From Candidatus Dojkabacteria bacterium (lineage in GTDB: Bacteria > Patescibacteriota > Dojkabacteria > JAOAGR01): DNA of 64,000 bases. The position numbers and the translations under genes were made by a program. The stretch lies in NCBI GenBank assembly GCA_026415655.1, contig JAOAGR010000004.1:67236-131235 (forward strand). Reading direction: 5' to 3'. Numbering within the stretch: the first letter of the stretch is position 1; each line of letters starts with the position of its first letter. This document shows positions 38,114-62,573 of the stretch, piece by piece. A model generated the notes under the pieces. It saw nothing but the letters and a program-made list of their open reading frames with translations. It was not told the origin of the DNA and did no database searches.

Positions 38114-38115
38114 GT

Positions 38116-38763: not shown

Positions 38764-38785
38764 AATTAATATTCTTTATAGATTT

Positions 38786-38818: not shown

Positions 38819-38942
38819 TTTAAATTTAATAAATTAGACTAAGTTATTGATAATAAAAGATAAATTAAAATCTTTATCCTAATCCTATTTAAAAATTTTT
38901 GCAAACATCTTAGAGAGGATATATATTCTGCACGATACCTAT

Positions 38943-43232: not shown

Positions 43233-43366
43233 TTACAGTAAAAGTTTTCATTGCTCTGTGCATTTTATATGTAGTGATCATCTTTCTACGTGGAATGCAC
43301 AGAGAGAGAAGAGCAAGGTCTAAAAGACAGAAAGATGATGAGTGTTAGTTAATAAATAAAAAGATT

Positions 43367-43708
43367 ATGAAAGAAAAAGTTATCAAAACAACAAAAAAAT
43401 TCAGTGCTATTTTCGCAACATTCCTTTTTACAACGCTTCTATTCAGTTCAACTGCTTTCGCAGCCACTGATCCAACATCAGAGATTTCAAATATTATTGA
43501 AAGAATCGTAAAAATTGTTACTCAAGTTGGTTCAGGAATTCTGATACTTTTTATCGTAAAGGATGCGTTTGAAATGCTTCAAAATAAAGATAATCCGGCT
43601 TATAGAAATATTCTTCTAAGGGATATTTTTATGCTTATCATTGCAGCTATCTTCTTATTTAAACCAGATTTTATTTTACAAGCAGTTAAATTTATAGCCA
43701 ATGTTTAA
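43367..43708 (+). CDS. Small pilin-like protein (signal peptide plus two hydrophobic helices), possibly VirB2/TrbC-like.
   Basis: 113 aa. Signal peptide FATFLFTTLLFSSTAFAA. Two hydrophobic stretches, SGILILFIV and FMLIIAAIFLF. Located at the head of the T4SS gene block. Confidence 0.4.
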   Translation: MKEKVIKTTKKFSAIFATFLFTTLLFSSTAFAATDPTSEISNIIERIVKIVTQVGSGILILFIVKDAFEMLQNKDNPAYRNILLRDIFMLIIAAIFLFKPDFILQAVKFIANV

Positions 43709-45425
43709 ACTATTTTCAAAATTGAATCCTGTAGGAGAAAAAGTTAAAACTCTCCTACGAAAATATCGTAGTTCAGATATTGAAGTTAAAAAACAAATTC
43801 GCTGGATTGTTGCTTTGGCATCAATTCTTCTAGCTGTAATTTGTATTGCAATTGGTATTACTAATTCAAATTCGCCTCAAGCAACCAAACAGGAAATACG
43901 AATAGAACAAAGAGAGGATTTGCCAAAAGGCTTGCCGAATCCAATTGATCTGGTGAATCCGTTCAAGAGTTTTCAGGAAGGGATCATTGATGGAGTTTCG
44001 GAAATCATCAAACAAACTGTGGGGCTTTTTGATGACTATGTAGGTTTTACCCCAAATATTGCAAGAAATGATGGCGAAATTAAAGACTCCTCAGGTAAAA
44101 CGATACCAATGGGATTCGATAAATTTTATCGGGTAACAATGAATATTGCATGGGCAATACTGCCATTGGTGATAGTTTTATATGGTGCATTTCTCGCTCT
44201 CGAAGGTGGTTTTAGAGGAGTGCAACTACTTCAACAAATTTCAAAAAAAGTATTACTTTTTGTAATTGCGATGGTCGCTATGAGATTTGTATTTGGATTA
44301 TTTATAGATCTTAATAATGGGATTAACTCGTATGTTCTTCAAAACCTTTTGGGAAGCCCGAAACTTTCTGATGCTATTCTTAACTCTCTTGGTCTTGCAA
44401 TTTCAGACAATAAACTTACATTTTCAATAGCAGGTGTTTTAAATACCTTTGGAGAAATAATCCTTTGGATTGGATTGTTTTTTATGCTTATGACTTTGCT
44501 TTTTCAATTTGTCATAAGATTTTTCCATCTATTGCTTCATGTGTTAATGTTTCCAATTGTACTAATTATCAGTTTGTTACCAGGAGGCGAACAATTCTTT
44601 AAAAATTATGTAGAAGAACTTTTAAGATCGCTTTTCCTTCAGCCAATATTTCTTGTTGGACTTGCAATTGTTATCCAAATTATAAGTAGCGTAAATCAGC
44701 CTGTTCCTAAAGTAATTCTGGGACTTGGTTCACTTGCATTTATGAATCTTATTCCATCAATCGTTAATCGTTTTAGCGGAATCTTGTGGGGACTCGGAGG
44801 TTCAGTTGCTGGTGGATTGCTTGCTACTGCGACTGTCGCTCATGCAGGAAAACTAAAAGATGGTGTCGTCGCAGGTTTGTCAGGAGGGCAGACATCATCA
44901 ATTAGAAATCTTGCAGGCAAAACAATAGGAGAAACAATTATTTCAAGATTCCCTTCCAGACCATCTTTAAGTAATAAAGCTGGTACTGGAACTAATTATC
45001 AAAACTCTAAATTAACATATCAGCCAAGTGAACCTACAAAAGAACTTTATCCAGTCAAAAGCTCTCAAAACGGAATGAGGCAATTTGCAGAAAAACCTTC
45101 AAATCCAAATTCAAAGCCTTATACAGTTCATATGGGAAGAACTTTTGATACAGGAAGTAAGGAACACTGGAATAATCTGACTTCGTGGTATCGATCGCAA
45201 AAAGACTTAATGTCGGGTAAATCAGAAGATCAGATTTCCGATTATCTATCAAATGCTTCAAATAAAAGGGAAATTATTAATGAAGCAAATAATGCAGGTT
45301 TCTTCACCCAAAATGGTATCAGAACAATAAAATTACCATCTGAAGATGCTGGAGAAAATTCTTATTTACAAATACCAAGACCAAAGAAAAAAGATGCAGG
45401 AGATAGTACCACCCAAATTAAATAA
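43701..45425 (+). CDS. Polytopic membrane protein, VirB6/TrbL-like (PrgH/TcpH-type), with a hydrophilic C-terminal extension.
   Basis: 574 aa with five to seven hydrophobic helices followed by a roughly 180-aa polar tail. Lies between the pilin-like gene and the VirB4-like gene. Confidence 0.5.
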   Translation: MFKLFSKLNPVGEKVKTLLRKYRSSDIEVKKQIRWIVALASILLAVICIAIGITNSNSPQATKQEIRIEQREDLPKGLPNPIDLVNPFKSFQEGIIDGVSEIIKQTVGLFDDYVGFTPNIARNDGEIKDSSGKTIPMGFDKFYRVTMNIAWAILPLVIVLYGAFLALEGGFRGVQLLQQISKKVLLFVIAMVAMRFVFGLFIDLNNGINSYVLQNLLGSPKLSDAILNSLGLAISDNKLTFSIAGVLNTFGEIILWIGLFFMLMTLLFQFVIRFFHLLLHVLMFPIVLIISLLPGGEQFFKNYVEELLRSLFLQPIFLVGLAIVIQIISSVNQPVPKVILGLGSLAFMNLIPSIVNRFSGILWGLGGSVAGGLLATATVAHAGKLKDGVVAGLSGGQTSSIRNLAGKTIGETIISRFPSRPSLSNKAGTGTNYQNSKLTYQPSEPTKELYPVKSSQNGMRQFAEKPSNPNSKPYTVHMGRTFDTGSKEHWNNLTSWYRSQKDLMSGKSEDQISDYLSNASNKREIINEANNAGFFTQNGIRTIKLPSEDAGENSYLQIPRPKKKDAGDSTTQIK

Positions 45426-46149
45426 AGATACCGGAATCCTCTCACTGTTTTTAAACAGAAGAAACTTTATTCTAACGATTGGAATTGGAGCTTCGTTTCT
45501 AATCTGGACTTCTTCCAGATTCAGCTCCGATACACAAACTATTCTTGAACTTGCTGTAATTTTTTGTTTAGCACCCTTCCTTTTTGATGTTTATGGAAGA
45601 CCAATGCATATATTTATAAAAGATTTCTTTAGATATATTTTTTCCAGAAAACAGAAAAGTATTACAGAAATTATTGAATATGAAGGTAATTATATAAAAA
45701 CAGGAAATTTATCGTTCGCAAAGGTTTACGGGATAGAGCCTGTAAACCTTTCAATGAGCAGTGAGGAAGAGGTAAATGCCTTTAAAAGATATATTCAACA
45801 GTCTCTATTTGCTTTAACTGAACAGATTCAACTCCTTACAATTCAAAGATATTCAGTTGATGATTCTGGTCTTGATATTGAAGAAAAAAGACTCGGGAAA
45901 TTGAAAGGTATTCTCAAGAAAAGATGCAAAGAATATCTGGAAGAGTATTCACTTTTAAGTCACACGATAGAAAGAAGTTTCTACCTGATTATTTCTGCAA
46001 ATTCCAAAAACGAGGTTGATGCAATTAAAAAAATTGACGATCAGGAAAATTCATTTGGAAGGTTATTAGAACAATCAAAGATTAAGCTAACCCCTCTTGA
46101 GTTCCCAGAAGTTAAAGATGTCTCAAGATTTATTTTACAAAGAAAGTAG
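45346..46149 (+). CDS. T4SS-associated membrane protein, possibly VirB3-like or a VirB4 N-terminal domain analogue, immediately upstream of the VirB4-like ATPase.
   Basis: 267 aa with two N-proximal TM helices. Overlaps the upstream gene by up to 80 nt. Its stop lies 2 nt before the ATPase start. Confidence 0.4.
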   Translation: MLEKILIYKYQDQRKKMQEIVPPKLNKDTGILSLFLNRRNFILTIGIGASFLIWTSSRFSSDTQTILELAVIFCLAPFLFDVYGRPMHIFIKDFFRYIFSRKQKSITEIIEYEGNYIKTGNLSFAKVYGIEPVNLSMSSEEEVNAFKRYIQQSLFALTEQIQLLTIQRYSVDDSGLDIEEKRLGKLKGILKKRCKEYLEEYSLLSHTIERSFYLIISANSKNEVDAIKKIDDQENSFGRLLEQSKIKLTPLEFPEVKDVSRFILQRK

Positions 46150-46151
46150 CC

Positions 46152-47984
46152 ATGAAATTCATTAAATATTTTAAAACTCAAACAAAGTTTGCAGTAAAAG
46201 ATTTAAACTCTAGGATTGAGAAAGTTGCAATCTCTGCTTCAACTCCTAAAAGATCAAGAGATCCTGTTAAACCACCTTCAAATTTAAGTCCTGCTTACGA
46301 ATTATCAGATAAAGGGAAATTTCTAAAAACAGAGAATTTATTCCAGGAATCATTTGTAGTTTCTGAGTTCCCACAAATCATTTATCCCAATTGGCTTTAT
46401 GACTTAATGAATTATTCTGAACCTCTTGTAATTTCCCAGTTTATTAAACCAATCGACTCAGGGAAAGCATTAACGGGACTTCGCAATCGTATTACAAATC
46501 TTTCTGCACAATATTACGACAGACAGGAAAAAGGGAAGCTACACACAACAGATCTTGAACAGGCGATAAGAGATGCCAGAACTATTGAAGATTCAATAGT
46601 TAGAGGAGTAGAAAAACTTTATTCCATGGGAATGTATGTCAATTTGGCAAGTGAGGACAAAACCGAACTTGATAAAAGTTCAAAAGTTTTAAAAGATTTT
46701 GCTTATGCAAAACAGCTAAAAGTTCACTCTCTTGCTTATAAACAAAAAGAAGCACTTGAAACATTTTTACCAAAAAATATAAATTACATAAATGAAGAAT
46801 TTTTCCTCACAAGTCAAAATGTTTCCTCATCTCTTCCCTTCACATCTGCTACTTTAAATGATCCAGAAGGAATTTTTTATGGAATAACAGTTGGAGGATC
46901 AAAGGTAAGATTTGATAGATTTTCCAAATCCTCAAAAAACTTCAATGGAATAATTTTTGCTACTAGTGGTGCTGGAAAAAGTTTTGCTGCAAAGCTTGAG
47001 GCATATAGAAGTTTGTTCCGTGGAATAAAAGTTTTTGTAATCGATCCGGAAGGTGAATTTAGAGCTTTAAGTGATGCTGTTGGCGGTACTGTTATTGATA
47101 TAAATCCAGAAAGTAAGATTAAAGTTAATCCACTTCAATTTTTCTCTACCGGGAACGATTCCAAAGAGATTATGAGAACTCACCTTGGAGTTGTGAAAGG
47201 CTTACTCAAGATATGGCTTTCTGATGATTCTTATAATCGTGGGCTTGTAAGTAAATGTGTTAATCAAGCTTATCAAAATGCTGGAATTATTCTGGAAGAT
47301 CCTTATACATACAGTAATCAGCCACCAACAATCACTGATCTTATAAATGTATTTGAGAAAAACGGTGATGAAGGTAAAGTTATTGCAACAGAACTATTGG
47401 AATACTCCAAAAAAGGTGAGCTTGGTGATCTTTACGATAACCCAACAAGTTCGGAGGTCGATTTTAATGCACCTATAACGGTTTTTAATATTCAAAAAGT
47501 TCCAGATCAGGAAAAGCAGGCAGCTATCTTTTATCTTTCGAATTTTATCTGGCAAAAAGTACTTGCCGATAGAGAAAAAAAGATCTTGATTATTGACGAA
47601 GCACATCTTCTTTTAAAAGAGGAGTCATCGGCAAATTTTATAGAAAATTTGGTAAGGAGAGGAAGAAAGTATAATTTAGGAGTCATTTGTATTTCTCAGG
47701 ATGTAGATGATTTTTTAAACAGCCCTCAGGGAAGCGTTATAGCAAAAAATGCTGATACCGCATTAATTTTATCTCAGAAAAAACAATCAATACCTCATCT
47801 TGTTAAGACATTTGATCTCTCAAATGCTGAACAGGATTACATTACGAGACTTTCAAAAGGTCAGGCTCTTTTTGTAAAGGGAAATATTCATTCACATTTA
47901 TATATTTTTCCTACACCCCATGAAAAAATCCTGTTTTCTTCAAATGCGGTAGATCTAGCGAGAAAGGAGAAACAAAATGCCTGA
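46152..47984 (+). CDS. VirB4/TrbE-family conjugation ATPase (PrgJ/TcpF-like).
   Basis: Walker A GIIFATSGAGKSFAA. Walker B KKILIIDEAHLLL. ISQDVDDF at the C-terminus. Fits VirB4 C-terminal ATPase architecture. Confidence 0.75.
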   Translation: MKFIKYFKTQTKFAVKDLNSRIEKVAISASTPKRSRDPVKPPSNLSPAYELSDKGKFLKTENLFQESFVVSEFPQIIYPNWLYDLMNYSEPLVISQFIKPIDSGKALTGLRNRITNLSAQYYDRQEKGKLHTTDLEQAIRDARTIEDSIVRGVEKLYSMGMYVNLASEDKTELDKSSKVLKDFAYAKQLKVHSLAYKQKEALETFLPKNINYINEEFFLTSQNVSSSLPFTSATLNDPEGIFYGITVGGSKVRFDRFSKSSKNFNGIIFATSGAGKSFAAKLEAYRSLFRGIKVFVIDPEGEFRALSDAVGGTVIDINPESKIKVNPLQFFSTGNDSKEIMRTHLGVVKGLLKIWLSDDSYNRGLVSKCVNQAYQNAGIILEDPYTYSNQPPTITDLINVFEKNGDEGKVIATELLEYSKKGELGDLYDNPTSSEVDFNAPITVFNIQKVPDQEKQAAIFYLSNFIWQKVLADREKKILIIDEAHLLLKEESSANFIENLVRRGRKYNLGVICISQDVDDFLNSPQGSVIAKNADTALILSQKKQSIPHLVKTFDLSNAEQDYITRLSKGQALFVKGNIHSHLYIFPTPHEKILFSSNAVDLARKEKQNA

Positions 47985-48645
47985 GGAAATAAAACCGAAT
48001 TTAATAGCAGGGTACTTCTTTCTATTTTTAATAATTACTTTTGTCTTTGGAGCTGGATTCCTGATTGAAAGTTATTTTAACGGGAATCTAAATAAATTTT
48101 TTCCAAAAGTAGAAGATCAAATTATTACTCAAAAGATAGAAGGAGAAGTCCAATTTCCTGTTAGTCCAACTGAGATTATTACTGTTACTCCGAGCCCGGA
48201 AGTAACTTCACTACCAACTCTATCAGCTCCCTCTTCTACTCCAATTCCTACAGCAACAGCTCAACCAACATCTGTCCCCACAACGAAGCCCCCTGTTGTC
48301 ATTACTACAACCAAACCTTTACCTACGGAAACTTCAAAGCCTCTTTCTTCTCTTAAATTGAGTTGTTCTATTACAAATACACAGCCAAAAGCAGGTCAAA
48401 ATGTCTCTGTAAATTGTTTTGCAAAAGATCAATCTGGAAATCCAGTTAATAACGTAATTTTGAAGCTTTCTATTGTATGGCAATCTGGCTCGCAAGTATT
48501 AAATATGCCTTCGAGCAATAGTTCTGGCACTTCACAAATTACAATTGTTGTTCCTGAAGGAAATAAGGGCATTGTAACGGCAAACATAACAGCAGAAAAA
48601 GACGGGCTTAAGGTAAATACGAATTTTACTTTAAATATTCAATAA
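47977..48645 (+). CDS. Membrane-anchored protein with a PT-rich linker and a C-terminal Ig-like beta domain. It sits where the VirB8/TcpC-like component is expected.
   Basis: N-terminal TM segment YFFLFLIITFVFGAGFLI. Linker TVTPSPEVTSLPTLSAPSSTPIPTATAQPTSVPTTKPPVVITTTKP. Confidence 0.45.
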   Translation: MPEEIKPNLIAGYFFLFLIITFVFGAGFLIESYFNGNLNKFFPKVEDQIITQKIEGEVQFPVSPTEIITVTPSPEVTSLPTLSAPSSTPIPTATAQPTSVPTTKPPVVITTTKPLPTETSKPLSSLKLSCSITNTQPKAGQNVSVNCFAKDQSGNPVNNVILKLSIVWQSGSQVLNMPSSNSSGTSQITIVVPEGNKGIVTANITAEKDGLKVNTNFTLNIQ

Positions 48646-48650
48646 ATCTT

Positions 48651-49718
48651 ATGGAAGAAAACCAATTATTAAATAAATCAAAAAACCTTGCTTCCAAAGC
48701 TGATGGACTGGCTGGAGATGCTCTTGCTATGGCTTCAAACAAAGTCGCCCCTGTTGCAGGTCCAATTCTGGTTCAACTTCTGTGGAAAAATAAAATAACA
48801 ATTACCTTGGTTATATTATCAATGATACTTTTAATGTGTTTTAGCTTTGAAAGCTTATCACTTCAAGCACTGGCAGGATCAAGAGGTCTGATAGAGCAAA
48901 TTTCTGCGACTCATAAAGAGTGTATTCAGAAAGCTAAAGAAAAACATAATATTGAGTTTGAGCTTTTAGCGTCATATGGGAAAGTAATTTCTGATTTTGA
49001 CGAAAAATATATAGGGACTGGCAAAGGGTTCTTGGAAATAACGGATGCTGATTGGGAAAAGTCATCAACTGATGGTGATGAGGACGGGGAAATTGAGGCA
49101 ACAAGTATCTGCGATAATTATTTTACTCTTGCAAATATTCTGTCTCAAATCCAAGGTGACAGTGAGAAAAAAATAGATGCTTATCCATACCAGAAAAAAG
49201 CGGAAGTTAAGGAATGGTACTTGATATACAAAGGCTTGATAATGATACCTTATGGAAATCCTGTTGGATTAATAAGGTCAGATCTTGTAACCGTTTCTTC
49301 GGGCTATAACGTAGTAAGAATTATTAATGGAAAAGAGAATGTTCATAGAGGTATTGATCTTGTTCCATCCGGAAAGTGGTATGAAGAAAATCCGGGGAAA
49401 ACCTCAAAAGATTCGATAGTAAATTCAATTATTTCGGGAGATCTTTCAAATACAGTTGATGACGCTGGTGCTTTATGTTCTACAGTTACAAATGAACTTT
49501 TTAAAGTTATTAACTGTCATTGTGATTCATTTATTGCTACTGATGGAGCAAAGGTTGTTTATGGATCTCCACTTTGTTTTATGGGAACAACTGGAAACTC
49601 CACAGGCGTGCATGTTCATGTTGAGATCTCTCAAAAGGACGAGAATGGCAAATGGCAGAGGATTGATCCAACTCCTCTTGTATTTCCAGTAAATAATTAT
49701 GCAGGACAAAACCAATGA
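48651..49718 (+). CDS. M23/LytM-family peptidoglycan endopeptidase with an N-terminal membrane anchor. Probably the T4SS cell-wall hydrolase (VirB1-equivalent, PrgK/TcpG-like).
   Basis: M23 motifs HRGIDL and GNSTGVHVHVEI. Confidence 0.75.
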   Translation: MEENQLLNKSKNLASKADGLAGDALAMASNKVAPVAGPILVQLLWKNKITITLVILSMILLMCFSFESLSLQALAGSRGLIEQISATHKECIQKAKEKHNIEFELLASYGKVISDFDEKYIGTGKGFLEITDADWEKSSTDGDEDGEIEATSICDNYFTLANILSQIQGDSEKKIDAYPYQKKAEVKEWYLIYKGLIMIPYGNPVGLIRSDLVTVSSGYNVVRIINGKENVHRGIDLVPSGKWYEENPGKTSKDSIVNSIISGDLSNTVDDAGALCSTVTNELFKVINCHCDSFIATDGAKVVYGSPLCFMGTTGNSTGVHVHVEISQKDENGKWQRIDPTPLVFPVNNYAGQNQ

Positions 49719-50490
49719 AAAAATTAAAATTCTGGATAAGTCTTTGCAACAGGGCTTTTCACAGATTCCAAGACCGGTACTTAAAGCCAAAGGACTTTCC
49801 AGAAATGCAAAATGTCTTTATGGGCTTTTGCTTGATTATGCCTGGCAAAGCGGAAGTTGCTTTCCTGGACAAAAAAGATTGGCAGAAGATCTGGATGTAT
49901 CAGAGCGAAGTATTCAGAGAGATCTTGAAGAACTTCGGGACTTTGGGCTTATCAAGTGGATTAGACGTGGTTATCAAATGACAAATGAATATCAGATTTT
50001 ATCTTTGGATTTTTTACTTCAATCAGATATGTCAAAAACGTCAGATCAAGAGGTGACAGATCTGGCTTCTCAAGAGATGACAGATACGTCGCACAAAGAA
50101 TATAACGTTGAAAATACCCAGAATAAAAATACTCAGTCGTCAACGTTGGAAACGAAAACGAATAATTTAAATCTTTTTGACAAGGAAGCAGTTGAACTTG
50201 CAACAGAATTAAACGATCTCAAAAGCATTCGGTTTTATCAGAAAATAATTAATCAAAGAAATAAAGGGGAAATCGCAATTGAAGATTTTAATACCGCTCT
50301 TGAAGATACACGAAGAGTTAAAAGATGTGATGAAGTCGATGGTACAAACTTTTTAAAAAATCCTGCTGGTTGGTTTGTTTCTGTTTTACAGAAACTCACC
50401 AGACGAAGACAGGACAAACTCCGGCAGGAAGAAGTTAAAACCAAGATGGATGAATTGAAAAATAAGTTTTTAGGAAAAGCAAAACTATGA
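49699..50490 (+). CDS. HTH_36-type winged-helix protein, replication-initiator/DnaD-like, of mobile elements.
   Basis: FSQIPRPVLKAKGLSRNAKCLYGLLLDYAWQSGSCFPGQKRLAEDLDVSERSIQRDLEELRDFGLIKW. Confidence 0.5.
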   Translation: MQDKTNEKIKILDKSLQQGFSQIPRPVLKAKGLSRNAKCLYGLLLDYAWQSGSCFPGQKRLAEDLDVSERSIQRDLEELRDFGLIKWIRRGYQMTNEYQILSLDFLLQSDMSKTSDQEVTDLASQEMTDTSHKEYNVENTQNKNTQSSTLETKTNNLNLFDKEAVELATELNDLKSIRFYQKIINQRNKGEIAIEDFNTALEDTRRVKRCDEVDGTNFLKNPAGWFVSVLQKLTRRRQDKLRQEEVKTKMDELKNKFLGKAKL

Positions 50491-53075
50491 GTCAGGAGTT
50501 AATAGAAAATTTAATAAAGTTTGCATTCATTTCTTTGAGCATAAGTTTAATTTTTACACTAAACTATTTTCGCAAATTATATTTTGCAAAAGTCAGAGCA
50601 AAAAAAGAAAAAGGATTTCTGATACAGATTATTCCACCCAAATACCAACTGGAAGATGCGGATCAAAGAGGAGTGCGTTTTGCTCTACAACGATTTATCG
50701 ATAATTTAACAGCAAGCGTAAAAGATTCCCGAATCTCTTTAGAAATTTTTGCTGATAATTCGGAGATTAACTTTCTGGTATGGACACCTAGTAAAAAGAT
50801 CGCTGAACTGGTTAAGCTTAATTTATACAGTACTTACAATGACCGAATAAAAATTAAGGACGTAGAAACTGATCCAATCAATTCTTTTTCCGTTGATTCT
50901 GTTGTGAACGAATATAAAACCTCCAAGCATGATATTTACATGCTTATGGATCTTAAAGACTTTGAATCTGTAGATCCAGTCCAAGATATTTTGGGAGCAA
51001 TGAGGGGACTTCAAAATGACGATAAGCTTTTATTCCAAATTACAATTAAGCCATCAAAACTTGACGTAATTGCATTACAAAAAGCAAAAGAGAATTTCCG
51101 ACTCCGTAGATCAGAAATAACCTGGCTGGAATTATTCCTGCAAAAAATCAGTTCGTATTTGATTTATTTTGTGCCACTTTTACCAATTTTTATTATAAAA
51201 ATATTTGGTGGAATTCTAGCTTTTTTTAAAGGAGGAAATATAAACCAAGATCCAATCTTTTTGCTTCCTGATAGTGATCCAAGGAAAGTACTTGTTGAGA
51301 AAGAAGAGTTAAGTAACTTTAACAGCCGAATATCAGAAAAATATAAAACTTCATTTTCTACGAATATTAGAGTTATTGCTGAGGGTGAAAGAAAGGACAT
51401 TTTGCTTGATGGATTTGAGCAAGCTCTCGAATCCATGAAATCAGAAACTCAAAACAGACTTATCCGTAAACATAAAAGCAATTCCTTTGATTTGCGAACC
51501 CGGCTTGTTTATCCAGAAGATTCCCTTTTCCCTTTTTACAAAGAACTTTGCACTTCTCAAAATACACTTTACTCAAGGGAAATTTCTATGATCTACCATG
51601 TGCCTTTTAAGATTGATGATCCGGTGATAACAAGCTTTGCCTCTCCTGACCTGCCAGCAAAAAAACTTTTTAAAGATAAAGTTAATATTTCTGATCTTTA
51701 TATTGGAATTAACAAATCCAGAAATATTGAATCAAATGTTTTTTTAAGTGAAGAGAATCGTAAAAGACATATTGTAATAAACGGTCAAACCGGAACAGGA
51801 AAATCCACCATTATGAAAAACTTTGTTTTGCAGGATATTGATGAAAACTTGATTGGACAAAATAAGCGAGGTTTAATGCTGATGGACCCGCATGAAGATT
51901 TCTTTATTGATATTTTAGAAAGACTGCCAGAAACGGAAATGAATTTAGAAAAGTTTATTGCCTGGGATACAACAAGCGAGGAATATTATTTTGGATTTAA
52001 TCCACTTTATGCAGTAGGGCTTACAGAACGGGAAATTGACTTAATTGTTGACTCGAATTTTAAACTGATAGAAAAAGTAATCCGCAGGATTAATCCAGAA
52101 TCAGGAATGGGTATGACCGGAAAGCCAATGCTGATAAATGCCATGAAAACCCTTATGGTTTTTCAAAATGAATGGCTGGAGAAAGTTGGAAATACAGATG
52201 CAAACGTAGAAATTATCAAGAAACATGCACCAACACTTCTTGATGTACGTAGTTTATTTATCAGTGACGAAGAATGCTCGACAATTCTATCTTTTATTCC
52301 ACTGGAAAAATATGAAGGACTCAGGACTTTCTGGGAAGATATTCTGCCCAATTACAAAGAATCACAAAATTGGTCAGAAATCAGACAAGGTTTTGATAAC
52401 AAAATTTCTCAAATTCTTACTGGTATTTTGTTTTTCACATTTGCTCAAAGTCAAAGCTCGATAGAAATATCAGAAATTATTCGGGAGTCAAAAATACTGC
52501 TTGTAAATTTGTCATCTAAAAATATTGGTGAAGAAGGTATGGGACTTCTTGGATCACTTCTTATGTCAAAGGTCTGGTTTGAGGCAAAAAAGATAGAAAA
52601 AAGTAAACGTAATCCATTTGTTGTTTATGCTGATGAATTTCAGAATTTTGCTAACAGTGATTTTGCCAGTGCATTATCTGAAGCAAGAAAATTTAAACTT
52701 GAACTTATACTTGCTCATCAATTCTTTCAGCAACTTCCCGAAGAAGTCTTTCACGCAGTTATGGGTAATGTAAAAACAAAAATTTATTACAGATGTGGAC
52801 TTGAGGATAGCGAAATGATTGCAAAAGAATTGCAGGGAAGACTTCTTCAAAATGAAGTCATGGAGATTCCGGAATTTCATGCAAATATTAAAGTCGGTGA
52901 GGATGTGTTTTCTGTCTATGTCCCTGTGGAAAGGAAACCAACAAAGAGTGAAATTGCAGTCCAAAAAATAGTCGAAGATTCGTATAAAAAATATGGGCGA
53001 ACAAGGCTTTCTGTAGAACAAAATATCATCAATAGAAGGAACTGGTTCAGGGACGGATGTGAGCCATACGGGTAA
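50487..53075 (+). CDS. Type IV coupling protein (VirD4/TraG/TcpA-like ATPase) with an N-terminal membrane region.
   Basis: N-terminal TM helices. Walker A INGQTGTGKSTIMKN. Walker B FVVYADEFQNFAN. 862 aa. Confidence 0.7.
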   Translation: MSQELIENLIKFAFISLSISLIFTLNYFRKLYFAKVRAKKEKGFLIQIIPPKYQLEDADQRGVRFALQRFIDNLTASVKDSRISLEIFADNSEINFLVWTPSKKIAELVKLNLYSTYNDRIKIKDVETDPINSFSVDSVVNEYKTSKHDIYMLMDLKDFESVDPVQDILGAMRGLQNDDKLLFQITIKPSKLDVIALQKAKENFRLRRSEITWLELFLQKISSYLIYFVPLLPIFIIKIFGGILAFFKGGNINQDPIFLLPDSDPRKVLVEKEELSNFNSRISEKYKTSFSTNIRVIAEGERKDILLDGFEQALESMKSETQNRLIRKHKSNSFDLRTRLVYPEDSLFPFYKELCTSQNTLYSREISMIYHVPFKIDDPVITSFASPDLPAKKLFKDKVNISDLYIGINKSRNIESNVFLSEENRKRHIVINGQTGTGKSTIMKNFVLQDIDENLIGQNKRGLMLMDPHEDFFIDILERLPETEMNLEKFIAWDTTSEEYYFGFNPLYAVGLTEREIDLIVDSNFKLIEKVIRRINPESGMGMTGKPMLINAMKTLMVFQNEWLEKVGNTDANVEIIKKHAPTLLDVRSLFISDEECSTILSFIPLEKYEGLRTFWEDILPNYKESQNWSEIRQGFDNKISQILTGILFFTFAQSQSSIEISEIIRESKILLVNLSSKNIGEEGMGLLGSLLMSKVWFEAKKIEKSKRNPFVVYADEFQNFANSDFASALSEARKFKLELILAHQFFQQLPEEVFHAVMGNVKTKIYYRCGLEDSEMIAKELQGRLLQNEVMEIPEFHANIKVGEDVFSVYVPVERKPTKSEIAVQKIVEDSYKKYGRTRLSVEQNIINRRNWFRDGCEPYG

Positions 53076-53113
53076 TTATTGTACTAGAACAGTTATCCAG
53101 TAAATAGCTCTTA

Positions 53114-53289
53114 AAAAACTTAACCTCTTATCTTATTTTTCTCATCCCCTTGCGATCCCTGCTCTCGTCATTTTGTGAGTGGGTGGACTTTCACGAAAGC
53201 CCACCCACTCACTTCCTCGACCATGGATTTGATGTGTATATTTAACACATACAAACGGGGGATGAGATATGGGGGGAGGTTAAGTTTTT
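53114..53289. repeat. Nested inverted repeats in the T4CP/Replic_Relax intergenic region, an oriT candidate. Outer pair AAAAACTTAACCTC / GAGGTTAAGTTTTT. Middle pair TCTCATCCCC / GGGGATGAGA. Core 38-nt GC-rich hairpin GTGAGTGGGTGG-A-CTTTC-AC-GAAAG-C-CCACCCACTCAC at 53175..53212.
   Basis: Read directly. The core hairpin is not followed by a T-tract, so it is not a canonical terminator. GC-rich in an AT-rich context. Confidence 0.5.
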
Positions 53290-53307
53290 AGGGTAATTAA
53301 TATAAAT

Positions 53308-54192
53308 ATGAAAAAAATAAGATTAAATAAAAATCAGATAGAGGTATTAAAAATTATTCAGAGTTTTAGGTATATTCCAATGAAGGTATTGATGAAGATT
53401 GTATTTGAGAGGGAAGTTTATGGGCATTTATCGGGACTGAGTAGAGGACTTCATAGATTGGAATATTCTGGATTAATAAAAAGTTTTTTATACGGTAATA
53501 ATTGGAAAGTAGTTTTTATCACGAAAAAAGGAGCAGAAAGCTTAGCTCTGGAATCAGGAATTCCAATTAAAGATATTTCCATTCCAAATCTAAGCCACAA
53601 AGTAGGTTTTGCCACTCTTGAGCATACAGTAAAAATAGCCAACCTTTATCTCGAACTCGCAATGGAAATACCCGCATTTCCAGATTTCTCACTAATAGAA
53701 TGGCTAGGAGATCAACAGGTATTTTTGCAGTACAAATTCCGTTCAGTAAGAAATGGAAAAACAATAAAAAGAAATCTGGCACCGGATTCTTTTTTCCTGC
53801 TTCAAAAGGATGGAGTCAATAAACCTTACTTTCTTGAATACGATACCGGTACTATGGACAGGGAACAGCTTGTACAAAAATTCCTGCGGTACTTTGAATA
53901 CTTTGTTTACGGGGAGTGGAGAGAAAAGTTCGGGACTTTTCCTTCAATTCTTTTCTTGACGGAAAGAAAAGAACAATCAATGCAAAAGTATTTGCAGGAG
54001 CCGGAAATTCCTTTGGAAAAAGCTCTTGCTCTAAGATCCAAATTTTCTGACTCCTCAAATATTGTCTGGAAGGCAATAGGCATGTCAGAAAATATTAAAA
54101 GCATAAATTCCAAAGAAATTTATGACTTTTTAAAAACTCAAATTATTTTTAATTATACAAATCAATCATGGACAAAAGAATTATTAAAATAA
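53308..54192 (+). CDS. Replic_Relax (replication-relaxation) family-like protein with an N-terminal winged helix. Candidate ICE relaxase or mobilisation protein.
   Basis: LNKNQIEVLKIIQSFRYIPMKVLMKIVFEREVYGHLSGLSRGLHRLEYSGLIKSF. Size and N-terminal wHTH are consistent with PF13814. Assignment from memory only. Confidence 0.45.
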   Translation: MKKIRLNKNQIEVLKIIQSFRYIPMKVLMKIVFEREVYGHLSGLSRGLHRLEYSGLIKSFLYGNNWKVVFITKKGAESLALESGIPIKDISIPNLSHKVGFATLEHTVKIANLYLELAMEIPAFPDFSLIEWLGDQQVFLQYKFRSVRNGKTIKRNLAPDSFFLLQKDGVNKPYFLEYDTGTMDREQLVQKFLRYFEYFVYGEWREKFGTFPSILFLTERKEQSMQKYLQEPEIPLEKALALRSKFSDSSNIVWKAIGMSENIKSINSKEIYDFLKTQIIFNYTNQSWTKELLK

Positions 54193-54743
54193 TATTTGCT
54201 CTGATCTCATGTATCTTTATCGTGATTGGAGTTTATTTAGCTTACAACGTTTTTTACCCTGAGATTTATTATCAGAAAAACCTTAAAAACAACATTACAC
54301 CTCCCCCCATTACAGAAAGCGAATCACCAAGCTCAGTATCTACCCCAGCCCTGGATCAGGAAAATATTCCTGATCGATTGATAATTCCCAAAATAGGTGT
54401 GGATATGGAGTTAGGAACTGATCCAAAGACATTAGATAAAGCAGGGTGGGTGCAAAACCTCTATCCTGATAATTCTGTAATGGTTATTGCAGCCCACAGG
54501 TTCGGCTGGATAGGCATGCCTAATGACCGGAAAGTAACTCATACTCTTTATAATATTAATAAGCTGGTAATTGGGGATGAGGTGATTATCCAATGGAATG
54601 GAGAGAGGAAGATTTATAAGATTAAAGATATAACTGAGGCTACAAATAACCCTTCTATAAAAGACGGTGAGGTTTTGATTTATACTTGTAAGTCTTTAGA
54701 TTCGGAATTAAGAATCTTTTTAAATTTAGAATATGTATTATAA
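54168..54743 (+). CDS. Sortase (N-terminal TM anchor; catalytic His, Cys and Arg region).
   Basis: LIIPKIGVD, VIAAHR (His), and LIYTCKS (TLxTC-type Cys). 191 aa. Confidence 0.7.
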   Translation: MDKRIIKIIFALISCIFIVIGVYLAYNVFYPEIYYQKNLKNNITPPPITESESPSSVSTPALDQENIPDRLIIPKIGVDMELGTDPKTLDKAGWVQNLYPDNSVMVIAAHRFGWIGMPNDRKVTHTLYNINKLVIGDEVIIQWNGERKIYKIKDITEATNNPSIKDGEVLIYTCKSLDSELRIFLNLEYVL

Positions 54744-54901
54744 GTTGAAATATTCATGCTCCATTTTCCTTTAAGGTCAATGCAGAAAAGTGCATTATAA
54801 TCTGTTATTCTGGAGTATTTTTTGCTGAAATAGATTATACAAAATGAATCTAAAGAGACAGCTGTGTTATATAAATGTACAATAAATAGAGGTATAACCA
54901 G

Positions 54902-57070
54902 ATGCAACGAGAACAGTCAAATCATGCAAATCATCACGGGGTTATGCATGAAGAAAATAAAAGTGATAGTCACAGTAATCATGGACATCAAAACCACGCT
55001 ATGAAGTCTATTGAAGACATGTCATTGCTGGAAAAAGTAAAGATGAGTATGAGCATGACCATGGGGATGGATCATACAGGGCTTGCAGGCAGAGAGATGG
55101 CAAGACTTATGGAACTTGATATTAGAAATAAATTTTTCTTTTCACTCATATTCACAGTTCCGATATTCTTATACACCATGGGCGAGATGATTTTCGGGAT
55201 TATGATGCCTGAATTCATGCCAAAATCATGGCTTTTATTTTTACTAACTACTCCAGTATTTTTTTATGGTGGGTGGTTGTTTTTATACTCAGCTTTTCAT
55301 TCATTGAGATCACGAAAGCTTGATATGTCTGTACTTATTGCCGTTGGTATTGTTGCTGCATATGTATTTAGCGTAGTTTTGACTTTTATCGGTTCGGAAG
55401 AAACATATTATGAAGCAGCTGCAATGCTAATTACATTTGTACTTTTTGGGCATTGGATGGAGATGAAATCAAGACGCGGTACTACTGATGCGTTGCAGGC
55501 TTTATTCGCTTTAGTTCCAGATCAAGCCAGAATTGATCGAGATGGAAAAGAAACTATCGTTGCAACCGATGAGGTAAAGTTAAATGACATCATAATTTTA
55601 AAACCTGGTGATAAAGTCCCTGTTGATGGAGTCGTGACTGAAGGTGAGACATCTATTGATGAATCTCTAATCACTGGCGAATCAATCCCTGTAACAAAAA
55701 AAGTGGAAGACCGAGTAGTGGCAGGATCAATCAATCAGACCGGTTCAATTAGATTTAAAGCAACTCAAGTCGGTCAAGATACTGTTTTAGCAAATATTGT
55801 TAAGTTGGTTGAAACCGCACAGAATTCAAAAGCACCGGGTCAAAGAATTGCGGATAAATTTGCTGGTTATCTAGTAGTGTTAGCAGTAGGCAGCGGATTA
55901 CTAACATTTGCTGTTTGGTACTTTCTCGCAGGTGAGCCAGTTCTTTTTGCACTGACATTTGCCATATCAGCAGTAGTTATCGCTTGCCCTGACGCTCTCG
56001 GTCTTGCAACTCCAACAGCGGTTGCTGTAGGTACAGGGATTGGTGCTAAACATAATATTTTAATTAAGGATGCACCTACTTTAGAACAGGTTTCTAAAAT
56101 TAAGGCAGTTGTTTTAGATAAAACTGGAACATTGACAGAAGGAAAGCCTAAAGTTGTGAGGGTTCAAACAGTTGAAGGCTTTTCTGACGCTGAAGCTATA
56201 AGAATTACGGCAATCGCAGAGCAAGGTTCTTCACATCCATTGAGCAAATCAGTACTAGATTATGCTGATGCAAATAATATTGCAATTAATTCTAAAGCCC
56301 AAAACTTTAAGAATTTGGCGGGTTTAGGTATTGAAGCACAAGTTGACGGTAAGAACATACTCGTTGGTACTAAAAAATTGATGAAGCAAAGAGATATTAA
56401 TATTGATGCTTTGGATTCGGTTATAAAAGATGCACTAGCTGGAGGAGAAACTATTATGATTCTCGCAATAGATAATAGTGTTAAAGCAGTAATTGGAGCG
56501 GCAGATCCAATCAAAGAGACCGCAAAAACTGCTATTTCAAGGCTCAATTCTATCGGAATCGAAACAATTATGATAACAGGAGACAATGAACGTACTGCTG
56601 AGATTGTATCGAAGAATTTAGGTATAAGTCGTTATTTCGCTGAAGTTATGCCGGAAGACAAAGCAGTATTTGTTAAGAAGCTTCAGGATGAAGGTAAGTT
56701 TGTTGCAATGGTTGGTGATGGAGTGAATGATGCTCCTGCTCTTGCTCAGGCAAATATTGGAATTGCAATTGGTGCAGGTACAGATGTGGCTGTAGAAACC
56801 GCGAAAGTCGTACTTATGAAGTCAGATCCAGAGGATATCTCAAGAGCAATTATACTTAGCAAAGCAACTGTACGTAAAATGAAGCAGAATCTTTTTTGGG
56901 CCTCCATTTATAACATTCTTGCAATCCCAATTGCAGCAGGTGCTTTATATCCTAGTTTTGGTATATCACTAAGACCTGAAGTTTCTGCATTACTGATGAG
57001 TGTATCATCAATAATTGTTGCACTAAATGCTGTTTCTTTAAGATTTGTATCTGCAAAGTTAAAGTCATAA
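54902..57070 (+). CDS. P1B-type heavy-metal-translocating ATPase with a His/Met-rich N-terminus and a non-canonical CPD transmembrane motif.
   Basis: TGES, DKTGTLT, and GDGVNDAPAL motifs. IACPDALGLATP in place of CPC. N-terminal HANHHGVMHEE..HSNHGHQNH..MSMSMTMGMDH. Confidence 0.85.
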   Translation: MQREQSNHANHHGVMHEENKSDSHSNHGHQNHAMKSIEDMSLLEKVKMSMSMTMGMDHTGLAGREMARLMELDIRNKFFFSLIFTVPIFLYTMGEMIFGIMMPEFMPKSWLLFLLTTPVFFYGGWLFLYSAFHSLRSRKLDMSVLIAVGIVAAYVFSVVLTFIGSEETYYEAAAMLITFVLFGHWMEMKSRRGTTDALQALFALVPDQARIDRDGKETIVATDEVKLNDIIILKPGDKVPVDGVVTEGETSIDESLITGESIPVTKKVEDRVVAGSINQTGSIRFKATQVGQDTVLANIVKLVETAQNSKAPGQRIADKFAGYLVVLAVGSGLLTFAVWYFLAGEPVLFALTFAISAVVIACPDALGLATPTAVAVGTGIGAKHNILIKDAPTLEQVSKIKAVVLDKTGTLTEGKPKVVRVQTVEGFSDAEAIRITAIAEQGSSHPLSKSVLDYADANNIAINSKAQNFKNLAGLGIEAQVDGKNILVGTKKLMKQRDINIDALDSVIKDALAGGETIMILAIDNSVKAVIGAADPIKETAKTAISRLNSIGIETIMITGDNERTAEIVSKNLGISRYFAEVMPEDKAVFVKKLQDEGKFVAMVGDGVNDAPALAQANIGIAIGAGTDVAVETAKVVLMKSDPEDISRAIILSKATVRKMKQNLFWASIYNILAIPIAAGALYPSFGISLRPEVSALLMSVSSIIVALNAVSLRFVSAKLKS

Positions 57071-57121
57071 AATTAGAAGAGGGATGATATGTCCTTTTAC
57101 TATATTAATAACAACATTAAT

Positions 57122-57165
57122 TTGATTTGTAGTAGTTTCGTGATATAATTGTATAACGTGTACGT
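57122..57165 (+). promoter_or_regulatory. Promoter TTGATT-16-TGaTATAAT followed by the operator-like near-palindrome TAACGTGTACGT (ACGTGTACGT) upstream of the cupredoxin-like gene.
   Basis: -35 at 57122-57127, extended -10 at 57141-57149, and motif at 57154-57165. The same 12-mer in the opposite orientation occurs upstream of copZ at 58013-58024. Confidence 0.4.
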
Positions 57166-57188
57166 CCCATATAGGTATTTAAATTATA

Positions 57189-57668
57189 ATGTCTAAAAAA
57201 AATAAAAAAAAAAGTATTAGTGAGCAGATAGAATCCTCTGCAAACTTAAGATCTGATGATTCTGGAGCCGCAAAAATATTTTTTATTGTATGTGCTGTGT
57301 TATTAGTTGTTTTAATTGGTGGAATGTTTGTATTTATGGGAGGCGGAAGTAGTGATGATGGTTCAGTACAAGGTACTCAGACAGCTTCAGTAGATGAAAG
57401 TGGTAAACAGGTAATTAATATAACTGCAAAAGGTGGATACAAGCCAGGTGTTGTAACTGCTAAAGCAGGACAACCGTCACTTTTAAAAATCAAAACAAAT
57501 AATTCTTTTGACTGTTCAAGAGCATTTATGATTCCTGACCTCAAAATTAGCAGAAATTTACCCCCAACCGGCGAAACTGTAATTGAAATACCTGCTCAAG
57601 AAGCAGGAAAAGAACTAGAAGGCACATGTAGTATGGGAATGTATTCGTTTAAAATGAAATTCGTTTAA
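57189..57668 (+). CDS. Membrane-anchored cupredoxin-like/Met-rich putative copper-binding protein.
   Basis: TM anchor, then GGYKPGVVTAKAGQPSLLKIKTNN...C...GTCSMGMY. Located in a cop context. Confidence 0.45.
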   Translation: MSKKNKKKSISEQIESSANLRSDDSGAAKIFFIVCAVLLVVLIGGMFVFMGGGSSDDGSVQGTQTASVDESGKQVINITAKGGYKPGVVTAKAGQPSLLKIKTNNSFDCSRAFMIPDLKISRNLPPTGETVIEIPAQEAGKELEGTCSMGMYSFKMKFV

Positions 57669-57673
57669 TATTA

Positions 57674-57946
57674 ATGATGAAACACAAAGAATCCAGTCAA
57701 AAAGAAAAATCAATCCTTGCATCTAAAAAAGCTGCAGGTACAGTAAAGAAAATTATAGAAATGCTTGAAGAAGATCGGTATTGCATTGATATTATTCAAC
57801 AGATTGATGGAGCCATCGGGCTCTTAAAAAGTGCAAGAAATCAAATCCTAGATGATCATTTTGATCATTGTTTGCTTGAAAAAATTCAAGAAGATAAGGA
57901 AAAAACTTTGGATGAACTAAAAAAGGTTTATAGAATAAGTAACTAA
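57674..57946 (+). CDS. csoR: CsoR/RcnR/FrmR-family metal-sensing transcriptional repressor (Cu-type C-H-C ligands).
   Basis: EDRYCIDIIQQIDGAIGLLKSARNQILDDHFDHCL. The conserved Cys, His and Cys align with CsoR. Confidence 0.8.
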   Translation: MMKHKESSQKEKSILASKKAAGTVKKIIEMLEEDRYCIDIIQQIDGAIGLLKSARNQILDDHFDHCLLEKIQEDKEKTLDELKKVYRISN

Positions 57947-57957
57947 TGTGAATTGTT

Positions 57958-57990
57958 AAGTCAACGAAATTAAGGCGTTGACTTTTTTTA
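57958..57990 (+). terminator. Rho-independent terminator after csoR: a 9-bp perfect stem AAGTCAACG / CGTTGACTT, a 9-nt loop, and a T7 tract.
   Basis: Read directly: aagtcaacgaaattaaggcgttgacttttttt. Confidence 0.7.
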
Positions 57991-58024
57991 GATATGTTAT
58001 AACATATACCCCACGTACACGTTA
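57978..58024 (+). promoter_or_regulatory. TTGACT -35 hexamer (inside the terminator's descending stem) and the operator-like motif ACGTACACGTTA upstream of copZ.
   Basis: TTGACT at 57978-57983. The 12-mer at 58013-58024 is identical to the reverse complement of 57154-57165. Confidence 0.35.
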
Positions 58025-58036
58025 GATCAAAAACAT

Positions 58037-58264
58037 ATGAATAATTACAAAATACAAATCAAAGGAATGCATTGCAACGGATGCAAAAATTTAATTCAAA
58101 TGTCGCTGGAGGATGAGAGTCTGCAGAATGTTTCTGTAAATCCAGAGACAGGATATGCGAACTTTAATACCGATTTATCAGAGGAAGATACCGCAAAAGT
58201 ATTAGAAAAGGTATTTGCAGAACTTTCTGACTATTCTTATTCAAATTTAGAAAAGGTGGATTAA
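58037..58264 (+). CDS. copZ: HMA-domain copper chaperone CopZ-like.
   Basis: The GMHCNGC (MxCxxC) motif in a 75-aa protein. Confidence 0.8.
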   Translation: MNNYKIQIKGMHCNGCKNLIQMSLEDESLQNVSVNPETGYANFNTDLSEEDTAKVLEKVFAELSDYSYSNLEKVD

Positions 58265-58271
58265 AACAAAT

Positions 58272-59330
58272 ATGTCAAAATTATTAACAATATCAATTGC
58301 CACTGTCACTTTTATAACAGGTGTCGGACTTGGCTATATAATTACCCCTCAGTATGCAATGTCTAATACAGAGAGTGCTGCTATGGTAGGAGACTTTGGA
58401 AAGGCAGATAAATATGTCGACCAAAGGTTTATCAATGCAATGATAAAACACCACTTAGGATCGATTGACATGGCTAAACAAGCTCAAACAAACTCTAGCA
58501 GAGATGAAATTAAGTCCATGGCTAATGACATCATTACTGTTCAACAAAAAGAAGTAGATCAGTTATATCAATGGAAAAAGGATTGGTATAACGATACTTC
58601 AAAAGTTAAACAAGGCGAAAAAGTAAACTTAGGGTCTGCTGGCGATAAATTTGATCTTAGATTTATTAATGCAATGATTGCACACCACTCTGATGCAGTG
58701 ATGATGGCTCAGGATATCCAAAAGAAATCAACTAGAGATGAGGTTCTCCAGCTTGCTGACGAAATCATTACAGCTAAGTCAGGTGAAATAAAAGCAATGG
58801 AGGACTGGAGATGGGCTTGGTATAACATTTCAACAACCACTTCAATGAATGATGGTAGCGGAATGTTAGGAACTGCTGATGAAAGATTTGATCTAAGATA
58901 CATTAACGAAATGATTTCTCATCATCAAGGTGCAATAGCACTAGCAAGACAGGTAGAAAAAACCTCACATCGGAAAGAAATTCGGGATCTCGCAACTATG
59001 ATTATAAAAGAAGAACCTAAGTCTATTGAGGAGTTATATGCATGGAAGAAGGCTTGGTATAACGATACAACAAAGGTTGCAGAACCAAAGGTGGCAAACT
59101 TAGGATCGTATGATGAAAAACTTGATTTAAGATTCCTGAACGCACTAATTGCTCATCATGATGCAGGAATTATGATGACAAAAGAAGCTAGACTAAAAAG
59201 TGCTAGAAATGAAGTTTTAAATAATGCGGATAGCACAGAAATGTTCTTTGTGACAACAAAGAAAACTTTTGAACAGTGGCGATCAGAATGGTACTTAACA
59301 CCAACATCTACACCTGCACAGCAGATGTAA
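58272..59330 (+). CDS. Secreted DUF305-family protein with four DUF305 repeats (tandem duplication). Associated with copper resistance.
   Basis: Four repeats of D.RF(I/L)N.MI.HH..A..MA: DQRFINAMIKHH, DLRFINAMIAHH, DLRYINEMISHH, and DLRFLNALIAHH. Has a signal peptide. Confidence 0.75.
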   Translation: MSKLLTISIATVTFITGVGLGYIITPQYAMSNTESAAMVGDFGKADKYVDQRFINAMIKHHLGSIDMAKQAQTNSSRDEIKSMANDIITVQQKEVDQLYQWKKDWYNDTSKVKQGEKVNLGSAGDKFDLRFINAMIAHHSDAVMMAQDIQKKSTRDEVLQLADEIITAKSGEIKAMEDWRWAWYNISTTTSMNDGSGMLGTADERFDLRYINEMISHHQGAIALARQVEKTSHRKEIRDLATMIIKEEPKSIEELYAWKKAWYNDTTKVAEPKVANLGSYDEKLDLRFLNALIAHHDAGIMMTKEARLKSARNEVLNNADSTEMFFVTTKKTFEQWRSEWYLTPTSTPAQQM

Positions 59331-59354
59331 TTTTAATTCTAAGCATATAAACAC

Positions 59355-62323: not shown

Positions 62324-62324
62324 T

Positions 62325-62570: not shown

Positions 62571-62573
62571 AAT

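Follow-up and report, generated by a model that had tools for sequence, protein, structure and literature searches.

Relaxases of the MOBC class, such as TraX of pAD1 and MobC of CloDF13, are called 'restriction endonucleases' in the 2025 nomenclature review of type IV secretion systems (T4SSs) (PMC12857230), according to which TraX carries an N-terminal winged helix and binds five direct repeats located 70-120 bp from nic, and no covalent intermediate was detected for it. For TraX, a metal motif 'DEE' has been described, and Y181 is essential (PMC6736028). The Pfam family Replic_Relax (PF13814) was assigned to the PD-(D/E)XK nuclease superfamily (Steczkiewicz et al. 2012, PMC3424549), and Rel_PF13814 corresponds to the MobC superfamily of CONJscan, whose members accompany VirD4-type coupling proteins and serine integrases (PMC5357655, Table 1). 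A recent survey (Quinonero-Coronel et al. 2025, PMC12102498) describes the T4SSs of Patescibacteria as MPF_FATA-related and relaxases as rare among them (109 in 103 genomes), MOBC being the commonest class (58/109); of the relaxase genes, 39 lie near t4cp and 15 near virB4. Here we analyse a stretch of 64,000 nt, referred to as the window, from Candidatus Dojkabacteria bacterium (contig JAOAGR010000004.1, positions 67,236-131,235). It probably contains an integrative conjugative element (ICE) inserted in the chromosome of this patescibacterium, with its DNA-processing (Dtr) module at 49699..54192, and we are confident that the relaxase of the element is the Replic_Relax protein encoded at 53308..54192, which belongs to the known non-HUH class MOBC. 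The element is neither relaxase-less nor does it use a Rep-type initiator as relaxase, and it is one of the minority in Patescibacteria that carry a relaxase.

The Replic_Relax protein and the oriT candidate

The module comprises the following features, where T4CP stands for type IV coupling protein and oriT for origin of transfer:

49699..50490, + strand, HTH_36 winged-helix protein, 263 aa (Pfam HTH_36 PF13730, 47.8 bits, E=1.2e-12, aa 32-85)
50487..53075, + strand, VirD4-like T4CP, 862 aa (weak TrwB_AAD_bind/DUF87 and TraD/CD1115-family matches)
53114..53289, unstranded, oriT-like nested inverted repeat, 176 bp (repeat search and fold statistics)
53173..53226, unstranded, conserved candidate oriT core, 54 nt (hairpin GTGAGTGGGTGG...CCCACCCACTCAC and 3' flank TTCCTCGACCATGG)
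53308..54192, + strand, probable MOBC-class (Replic_Relax) relaxase, 294 aa (Pfam Replic_Relax PF13814)

The sequence-only reading of this DNA had named the HTH_36 and Replic_Relax proteins as candidates for DNA processing that flank the T4CP gene and an oriT-like structure. The list of open reading frames (ORFs) and Pfam place both genes at 49699..50490 and 53308..54192, the T4CP gene at 50487..53075 and a 232-nt gap with a nested inverted repeat lie between them, and both proteins remain the candidates. Its claim that no canonical MOB relaxase is present does not hold, since Replic_Relax (PF13814) is the MOBC class and is recognised by CONJscan (PMC5357655); the MOBscan check suggested there would most likely report 53308..54192 as MOBC. 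The accompanying suggestion of a non-canonical relaxase or a Rep-like initiator was right in that the enzyme is non-HUH, and unsupported in that a Rep-like initiator would act as the relaxase.

The match to Replic_Relax scores 56.9 bits (cut-off 25.3; E=3.8e-15) and spans model positions 2-190 of 191, and the PHROG family 'replication initiation by nicking' matches the same protein (E=1.1e-15). It begins with a MarR-like winged helix (aa ~8-83), and a putative catalytic domain of PD-(D/E)XK-like type takes up aa ~100-220. In an alignment of the Patescibacteria family, which contains 31 sequences with identity down to 38%, the residues H106, D135, Y142, P159-D160, E177, D179, G181, M183-D184, K191, Y195, and E197 are invariant, and R194, which precedes Y195, is mostly R. 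The AlphaFold2 (AF2) model, with a predicted local distance difference test (pLDDT) score of 92, shows a winged helix at 8-83, a helix at 101-123, five strands, a helix at 185-201, and a strand at 213-218, the part after the winged helix forming an alpha/beta core; this predicted order of elements would be the one expected for a PD-(D/E)XK core, D160 starting one strand of a hairpin and E177/D179 ending the next. Domain content, family membership, and conserved residues of the protein are demonstrated. A homologue 87% identical to the window protein and fused to a DUF4143 segment occurs in locus L002 (10001..11050), where it is surrounded by housekeeping-type genes only, away from any T4SS or T4CP gene, and may be a remnant or a domesticated copy.

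For comparison with a described MOBC relaxase, CloDF13 (NC_002119) provided no usable MobC sequence, as the annotation and ORFs of its mob region are fragmented, and TraX of pTEF1 was used instead. In this pAD1-like plasmid, whose relaxases are typed as MOBC by MOB-suite, a 'replication-relaxation family protein' is encoded just downstream of the T4CP. This TraX orthologue matches PF13814 at 28.5 bits and has E28, D152, E170, E172, K176, R180, Y181, and Y203, all eight of which are invariant in an alignment of 35 sequences of the TraX family. The same eight residues of pAD1 TraX were reportedly mutated by Francia in 2013. When the Patescibacteria family was compared with the TraX family by hhalign, 142 columns were aligned at Prob 83% and E=8.6e-6; the winged helices and the LEH/L-HH helix fall together, and D160 is matched to TraX D152. 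The similarity to TraX is seen by profiles only. By eye, E177-x-D179 corresponds to TraX E170-x-E172 and R194-Y195 to R180-Y181, so that the acidic triad D160/E177/D179 is the counterpart of D152/E170/E172, with a spacing after the PD aspartate of 17 residues compared with 18 in TraX, whereas K176 of TraX has the non-identical counterpart D184 (also by eye). The protein studied here and pAD1 TraX with its pTEF1 orthologue have in common the Replic_Relax match, the N-terminal MarR-like winged helix, and the D...E-x-(E/D) triad, after which, by eye, a basic residue and R-Y follow in both.

The arrangement of the locus is also that of pAD1-type plasmids, in which the T4CP, a large nested inverted repeat (oriT), and the relaxase follow in this order and the T4SS is of the monoderm MPF_FATA type. 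The nested inverted repeat between the T4CP and relaxase genes measures 142 bp in pTEF1 and 176 bp here. The two systems differ in host context, as pAD1 of Enterococcus faecalis is a pheromone plasmid of Firmicutes and the present element is integrated in a Patescibacteria chromosome, and in the HTH_36 protein, which precedes the T4CP here but not in pTEF1. The streptococcal integrative mobilizable elements (IMEs) of class 8 (Coluzzi et al. 2017, PMC5357655) share the trio of VirD4-type coupling protein, Rel_PF13814/MobC relaxase, and serine integrase, yet they are small and mobilizable without a T4SS of their own, whereas the element described here carries a full set of mating-pore genes. The phylum, the MPF_FATA-related VirB4 clade, and the presence of VirB2-like pilins are shared with the clusters of PMC12102498, in which MOBC is often near t4cp; the survey gives counts only, and its text as searched does not describe the oriT, HTH_36 partner, sortase, and integration module seen here.

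The gene order VirB6, 267-aa protein, VirB4, Ig-like protein, M23 peptidase, HTH_36, T4CP, gap, Replic_Relax, and sortase is kept in all 12 related loci that have enough flanking sequence (L001, L006-L010, L012-L015, L017, and L018) and recurs in L019/L020; gene order is therefore among the demonstrated features, as is the conservation of the cis element described below. The related loci come from Nomurabacteria-, Dojkabacteria-, and Saccharibacteria-labelled metagenome-assembled genomes, some of them complete genomes, and all named homologues of the HTH_36 and Replic_Relax proteins are from Patescibacteria. The T4CP orthologues occupy the same position in the 12 loci with 60-63% identity, and nearly identical modules were read on 18 contigs from several sequencing runs.

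Within the 232-nt gap, the outer arms of the nested inverted repeat (53114-53127/53276-53289) pair at 14/14 positions and the middle arms (53140-53149/53258-53267) at 10/10; further inside, 53175..53212 forms an 18-nt hairpin. As single-stranded DNA, the gap folds much more favourably than shuffled sequences, with z = -7.9 and -8.8 on the two strands. When the gap was aligned across the 12 related loci, the 54-nt core showed a mean pairwise identity of 0.88 compared with 0.49-0.56 in its flanks; the proteins that flank the gap are ~50-63% identical among the related loci. The consensus structure of the gap from 13 loci comprises 30 pairs; compensatory changes occur at 12, both in the outer stems and at a single position of the inner one. 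We propose 53173..53226 as the candidate recognition and nick region. A search of Rfam with the hairpin returned no family and only chance-level matches of miRNA type. Neither strand has a T-run after the hairpin, for which reason its reading as an intrinsic terminator was discarded. In locus L010 (9749..10003) all genes are kept and the oriT core is lost through a 56-nt deletion, and this may be a transfer-dead copy.

Other relaxase families were looked for with Pfam, and none of Relaxase, MobA_MobL, TrwC, Mob_Pre, Rep_trans (PF02486), and TraI_2 matched any scanned ORF of the window; these ORFs account for 95.5% of 36644..63422, the two longest stretches outside them being 250 and 232 nt. 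When all six frames were searched with a crude regular expression for the HUH motif, it matched nothing but a 27-codon fragment and the N-terminus of a P-type ATPase, which is rich in His. The absence of a visible HUH-type relaxase, as stated from the letters alone, is thus upheld within the window, the right part of the element being unseen. No other relaxase family was recorded within 8-10 kb of those related loci that have precomputed Pfam calls.

Several observations weigh against the assignment of the element as conjugative and of its Replic_Relax protein as a MOBC relaxase. Fold searches with the Replic_Relax model returned essentially the winged helix-turn-helix (wHTH) domain only, with FokI, PfoI, and Cap4 as weak matches of low probability, and the PD-(D/E)XK fold consequently rests on motif, topology, and the literature; the family profile found only a MarR protein (E=0.7) among PDB sequences. 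Pairwise BLASTP between the protein and TraX is insignificant (E=0.05), and tblastn found no match in the 72,556 plasmids of PLSDB. The hhalign match ends before the E-x-D/E strand, which is why the equivalences of E177, D179, and Y195 were drawn by eye; the third catalytic-motif residue is D179 rather than E or K, and TraX Y203 corresponds, again by eye, to F216. The short tandem direct repeats to which TraX binds in oriT2 of pAD1 also accompany the inverted repeat in pTEF1 (12-nt-spaced, 19658..19735), and no such array was found in the window or in the 12 related loci. The array is a feature of pAD1 and is not known to define MOBC as a whole. The right end of the element lies outside the window, where a further relaxase is possible, and most Patescibacteria T4SSs are considered non-conjugative (PMC12102498).

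Taken with these points, the data would fit the following mechanism, in which nicking, the nick position, the transferred strand, and the role of HTH_36 are what we infer. The N-terminal winged helix of the Replic_Relax protein would recognise oriT in the 232-nt gap just upstream of its gene, and the restriction-endonuclease-like domain, with D160/E177/D179 and with K191 and R194-Y195 on the next helix, would nick one strand in or beside 53173..53226. The VirD4-like T4CP could then pass the nicked DNA to the MPF_FATA-like T4SS encoded at 43367..49718. The HTH_36 protein, which resembles RepA_N and DnaD-N and is made together with the T4CP, may serve as an oriT-binding accessory factor, as a loader of the host helicase or primosome, or both, and such loading would supply a function that the small MOBC relaxase lacks.

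That the cluster might not be conjugative at all, the T4SS being one typical of the lineage and its epibiotic life and the Replic_Relax and HTH_36 proteins being relics or regulators, appears very improbable to us. PMC12102498 reports that most Patescibacteria T4SS clusters lack a relaxase and proposes that they were co-opted, and a T4SS is essential in a Saccharibacterium (PMC12857230). However, this locus has a T4CP and a relaxase-class gene with a strongly conserved, structured cis element between them, and a serine recombinase at a tRNA gene, a GC shift, swappable cargo, and near-identical modules on 18 contigs are typical of a mobile element.

The HTH_36 protein

The stop codon of the HTH_36 gene overlaps the T4CP start (ATGA), so that the two genes are translationally coupled, and the HTH_36 gene takes the same slot in 12/12 of the related loci. 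An alignment of 36 family members shows a strongly conserved N-domain with the motif LLLDYAWQ.G.CFPGQ, a variable low-complexity linker, and a C-domain that is also conserved and bears the motifs FD.EA...A.ELND and DG..FLKNPAGWF. In agreement with this, the AF2 model has a winged helix at aa 25-100, disorder at 110-155, and a helical C-domain at 160-262. The best Foldseek matches are the staphylococcal plasmid RepA_N initiators 4pql, 4pt7, 4pta, and 5kbj (E 2e-3 to 2e-2, prob 1.0), followed by DnaD-N 2v79; all of them cover the N-domain only and indicate resemblance at the level of the fold. The C-domain matches nothing. The PHROG families 'replication initiation protein' (1.1e-16) and 'DnaD-like helicase loader' (6.7e-16) match the protein, and DnaD_N is matched by 13/36 family members and Phage_rep_O by 8/36. 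The window protein itself has no RepA_N or DnaD_N match at E<=0.01, and such matches are confined to some homologues. The winged-helix N-domain is common to this protein, the RepA_N initiators of staphylococcal and enterococcal plasmids, and the replisome organisers of DnaD and phage O type, whereas the lack of a Pfam RepA_N match, the lack of detected iterons, and the position of the gene inside a conjugation operon set it apart from RepA_N/DnaD initiators.

Three variants of the HTH_36 gene and its surroundings were seen elsewhere. In L021 (8890..9564), a variant module, a gene for a single-stranded DNA-binding protein (SSB) is inserted between the HTH_36 and T4CP genes. A distant homologue of 425 aa in L022 (8001..9278) adjoins a ParB/ParA pair, as in a plasmid replication-partition module, and the homologue P0090 is fused to a DnaA_N domain.

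These likenesses would also suit a Rep-type initiator that starts DNA processing, as MOBT/Rep_trans does in Tn916 and ICEBs1, with Replic_Relax as a regulator only. The N-domain is close to the RepA_N, DnaD-N, and phage O-type initiators, some homologues have RepA_N or DnaA_N matches, a distant one lies beside ParAB like a plasmid Rep, and a regulatory role for Replic_Relax was suggested by Steczkiewicz 2012 (PMC3424549). We consider this reading very improbable. Besides its winged helix, the HTH_36 protein has only the disordered linker and the helical C-domain; a nuclease domain, whether HUH, Rep_trans, or of another type, is absent, and so is any invariant cluster of Tyr and His. It therefore cannot be the relaxase, contrary to the Rep-like alternative raised from the sequence alone. 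Proteins of RepA_N/DnaD type bind and then melt or load DNA or partners without nicking, and neither iterons nor tandem repeats were found around oriT in the window or in the 12 related loci. Moreover, the metal-binding acidic triad of Replic_Relax is invariant, and a protein that acted only as a regulator would have no need of it.

With the Replic_Relax protein as the nicking enzyme, the HTH_36 protein is most likely not a nickase but an accessory factor that binds oriT, a loader for the helicase or primosome of the host, or both. Tentatively, and with more reserve, one may go further and see in it an obligatory, undescribed partner of MOBC in Patescibacteria ICEs that binds oriT, recruits the helicase or primosome, and links the relaxosome to the T4CP.

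Probable integration site, mating-pore genes, and cargo

Around the DNA-processing module, the following features were assigned:

36584..36676, + strand, tRNA-Ser(gct), probable integration site and left junction (ARAGORN)
36644..38113, - strand, large serine recombinase, left end of the element (Pfam Resolvase, Recombinase, and Zn_ribbon_recom)
38116..38763, - strand, LexA/S24-type repressor (LexA-like helix-turn-helix (HTH) and Peptidase_S24)
38943..39173, + strand, Cro-like HTH protein, facing the LexA/S24-type repressor
40113..43232, + strand, DUF11/SdrD-type surface protein, 1039 aa
43367..49718, + strand, mating-pore genes (VirB2-like pilin, VirB6-like protein, 267-aa membrane protein, VirB4, Ig-like protein, M23 peptidase)
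46152..47984, + strand, VirB4 ATPase (best NCBIfam matches to the Mycoplasma-ICE Mbov_0397 and Clostridioides CD1110 families, E ~1e-85)
54168..54743, + strand, sortase-like protein (Pfam Sortase E=1.5e-5, below the cut-off, and weak NCBIfam sortase classes)
54902..63422, copper/heavy-metal cargo (two P-type ATPases, a cupredoxin, a CsoR-like repressor, heavy-metal-associated (HMA) proteins, DUF305, and DsbD_2)

The left 36 kb of the window are ordinary chromosome with RecA, MnmA, MiaA, NDK, a GatA-like amidase, and a Mur ligase, and the ORF list shows a compact block of genes on one strand from ~38.9 kb to 54.7 kb. The hallmarks of an ICE are the serine recombinase at tRNA-Ser, the LexA/Cro-like switch, a GC shift, and variable cargo; GC is ~0.27-0.32 to the left of tRNA-Ser and 0.33-0.39 from there to the end of the window. 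An integrase, VirB4, a T4CP, and a relaxase-class gene, i.e., all four classes, are present. With its final 11 codons, the serine recombinase gene overlaps tRNA-Ser(gct) in antisense at the 3' end of the latter, which suggests that the element integrated into this end of the tRNA gene and rebuilt it. Integration at a tRNA 3' end is usual with tyrosine integrases and unusual with serine recombinases. The search of the window for a right attachment site (attR) or a direct repeat of the tRNA end found none. We read the tRNA-Ser as the left end of the element, a plausible junction, and the right end as lying past base 64000. The idea that a canonical HUH/Rep_trans relaxase lies in that distal part and that Replic_Relax serves the replication of the excised form draws on the missing attR, on the raised GC that runs to the window end, and on the family name and the PHROG 'replication initiation by nicking', which permit a replicative role, but it is highly improbable given that no other relaxase family occurs among the recorded Pfam calls of related loci with 10 kb downstream and that the adjacency of T4CP, oriT, and relaxase is the arrangement of pAD1, where TraX is the relaxase.

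The LexA-like/Cro-like pair beside the recombinase looks like a switch operated by the SOS response or by self-cleavage, comparable with those of SXT- and ICEBs1-type elements. Two metagenome contigs, L023/L024 (Logan SRR27730017 and SRR27730018; 42.6 and 44.0 kb), carry a RecA identical to that of the window, and by coordinate arithmetic their ends would fall approximately at the junction of tRNA-Ser and the element, as might be expected if assembly broke off at an element that is polymorphic or repeated. The cargo differs among the relatives: a similar copper set in another gene order was seen in L019, and L001 has bacteriophage exclusion (BREX) genes instead.

The mating-pore genes were assigned by Pfam, NCBIfam, and synteny. 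After the gene for the 1039-aa surface protein come those for a VirB2/T4SS_pilin-like and then a VirB6/TrbL-like protein, and the 267-aa membrane protein has a faint TcpE match. The NCBI name of the 862-aa T4CP is 'type IV secretory system conjugative DNA transfer family protein'. Its N-terminal ~400 residues (50487..51700) have no family match and are conserved in all related loci; the membrane anchor of VirD4 is usually of two helices and much shorter. The sortase-like gene overlaps the 3' end of the relaxase gene and is always the next gene in the related loci. The C-terminus of the surface protein (43140..43232) ends ...VIADTGHSVLTPLIFGLVLILIGASGLLFYLTRTKE and resembles a cell-wall sorting signal in which a motif other than LPXTG is combined with a hydrophobic stretch and a basic end. 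The sortase-like protein of the element may anchor this surface protein as a mating adhesin.

Within the chromosomal part, the stretch 3000..7000 is very AT-rich (GC ~0.21) and adjoins tRNA-Gly at 7633..7706, and the ORFs 3528..4034, 4373..5128, and 5620..6546 in it have no Pfam match.

Significance for the Patescibacteria

The MOBC class, the pAD1-type layout, and the occurrence of MOBC in Patescibacteria are already known, and the element adds one more case of this design. Its novelty is confined to a divergent MOBC lineage in Patescibacteria ICEs with a sharply conserved oriT candidate and without the direct repeats of pAD1 type, and to the constant initiator-like HTH_36 partner. The analysis corrects the impression of a relaxase-less or exotic element, and lays out a full conjugation module of an uncultivated ultra-small bacterium, with relaxase, coupling protein, probable accessory protein, and a sharply delimited oriT candidate. 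It also offers a second, very divergent MOBC system in which the action of non-HUH relaxases can be studied.

If the HTH_36 protein were indeed an obligatory partner, this would answer in part how MOBC relaxases deliver DNA to the T4SS, and HTH_36 together with the 54-nt oriT core would give the Candidate Phyla Radiation a mobilisation cassette that is both minimal and portable. Few genetic tools exist for Patescibacteria, and it is debated whether their widespread T4SSs move DNA; the pair of candidate oriT and relaxase described here makes this question directly testable.

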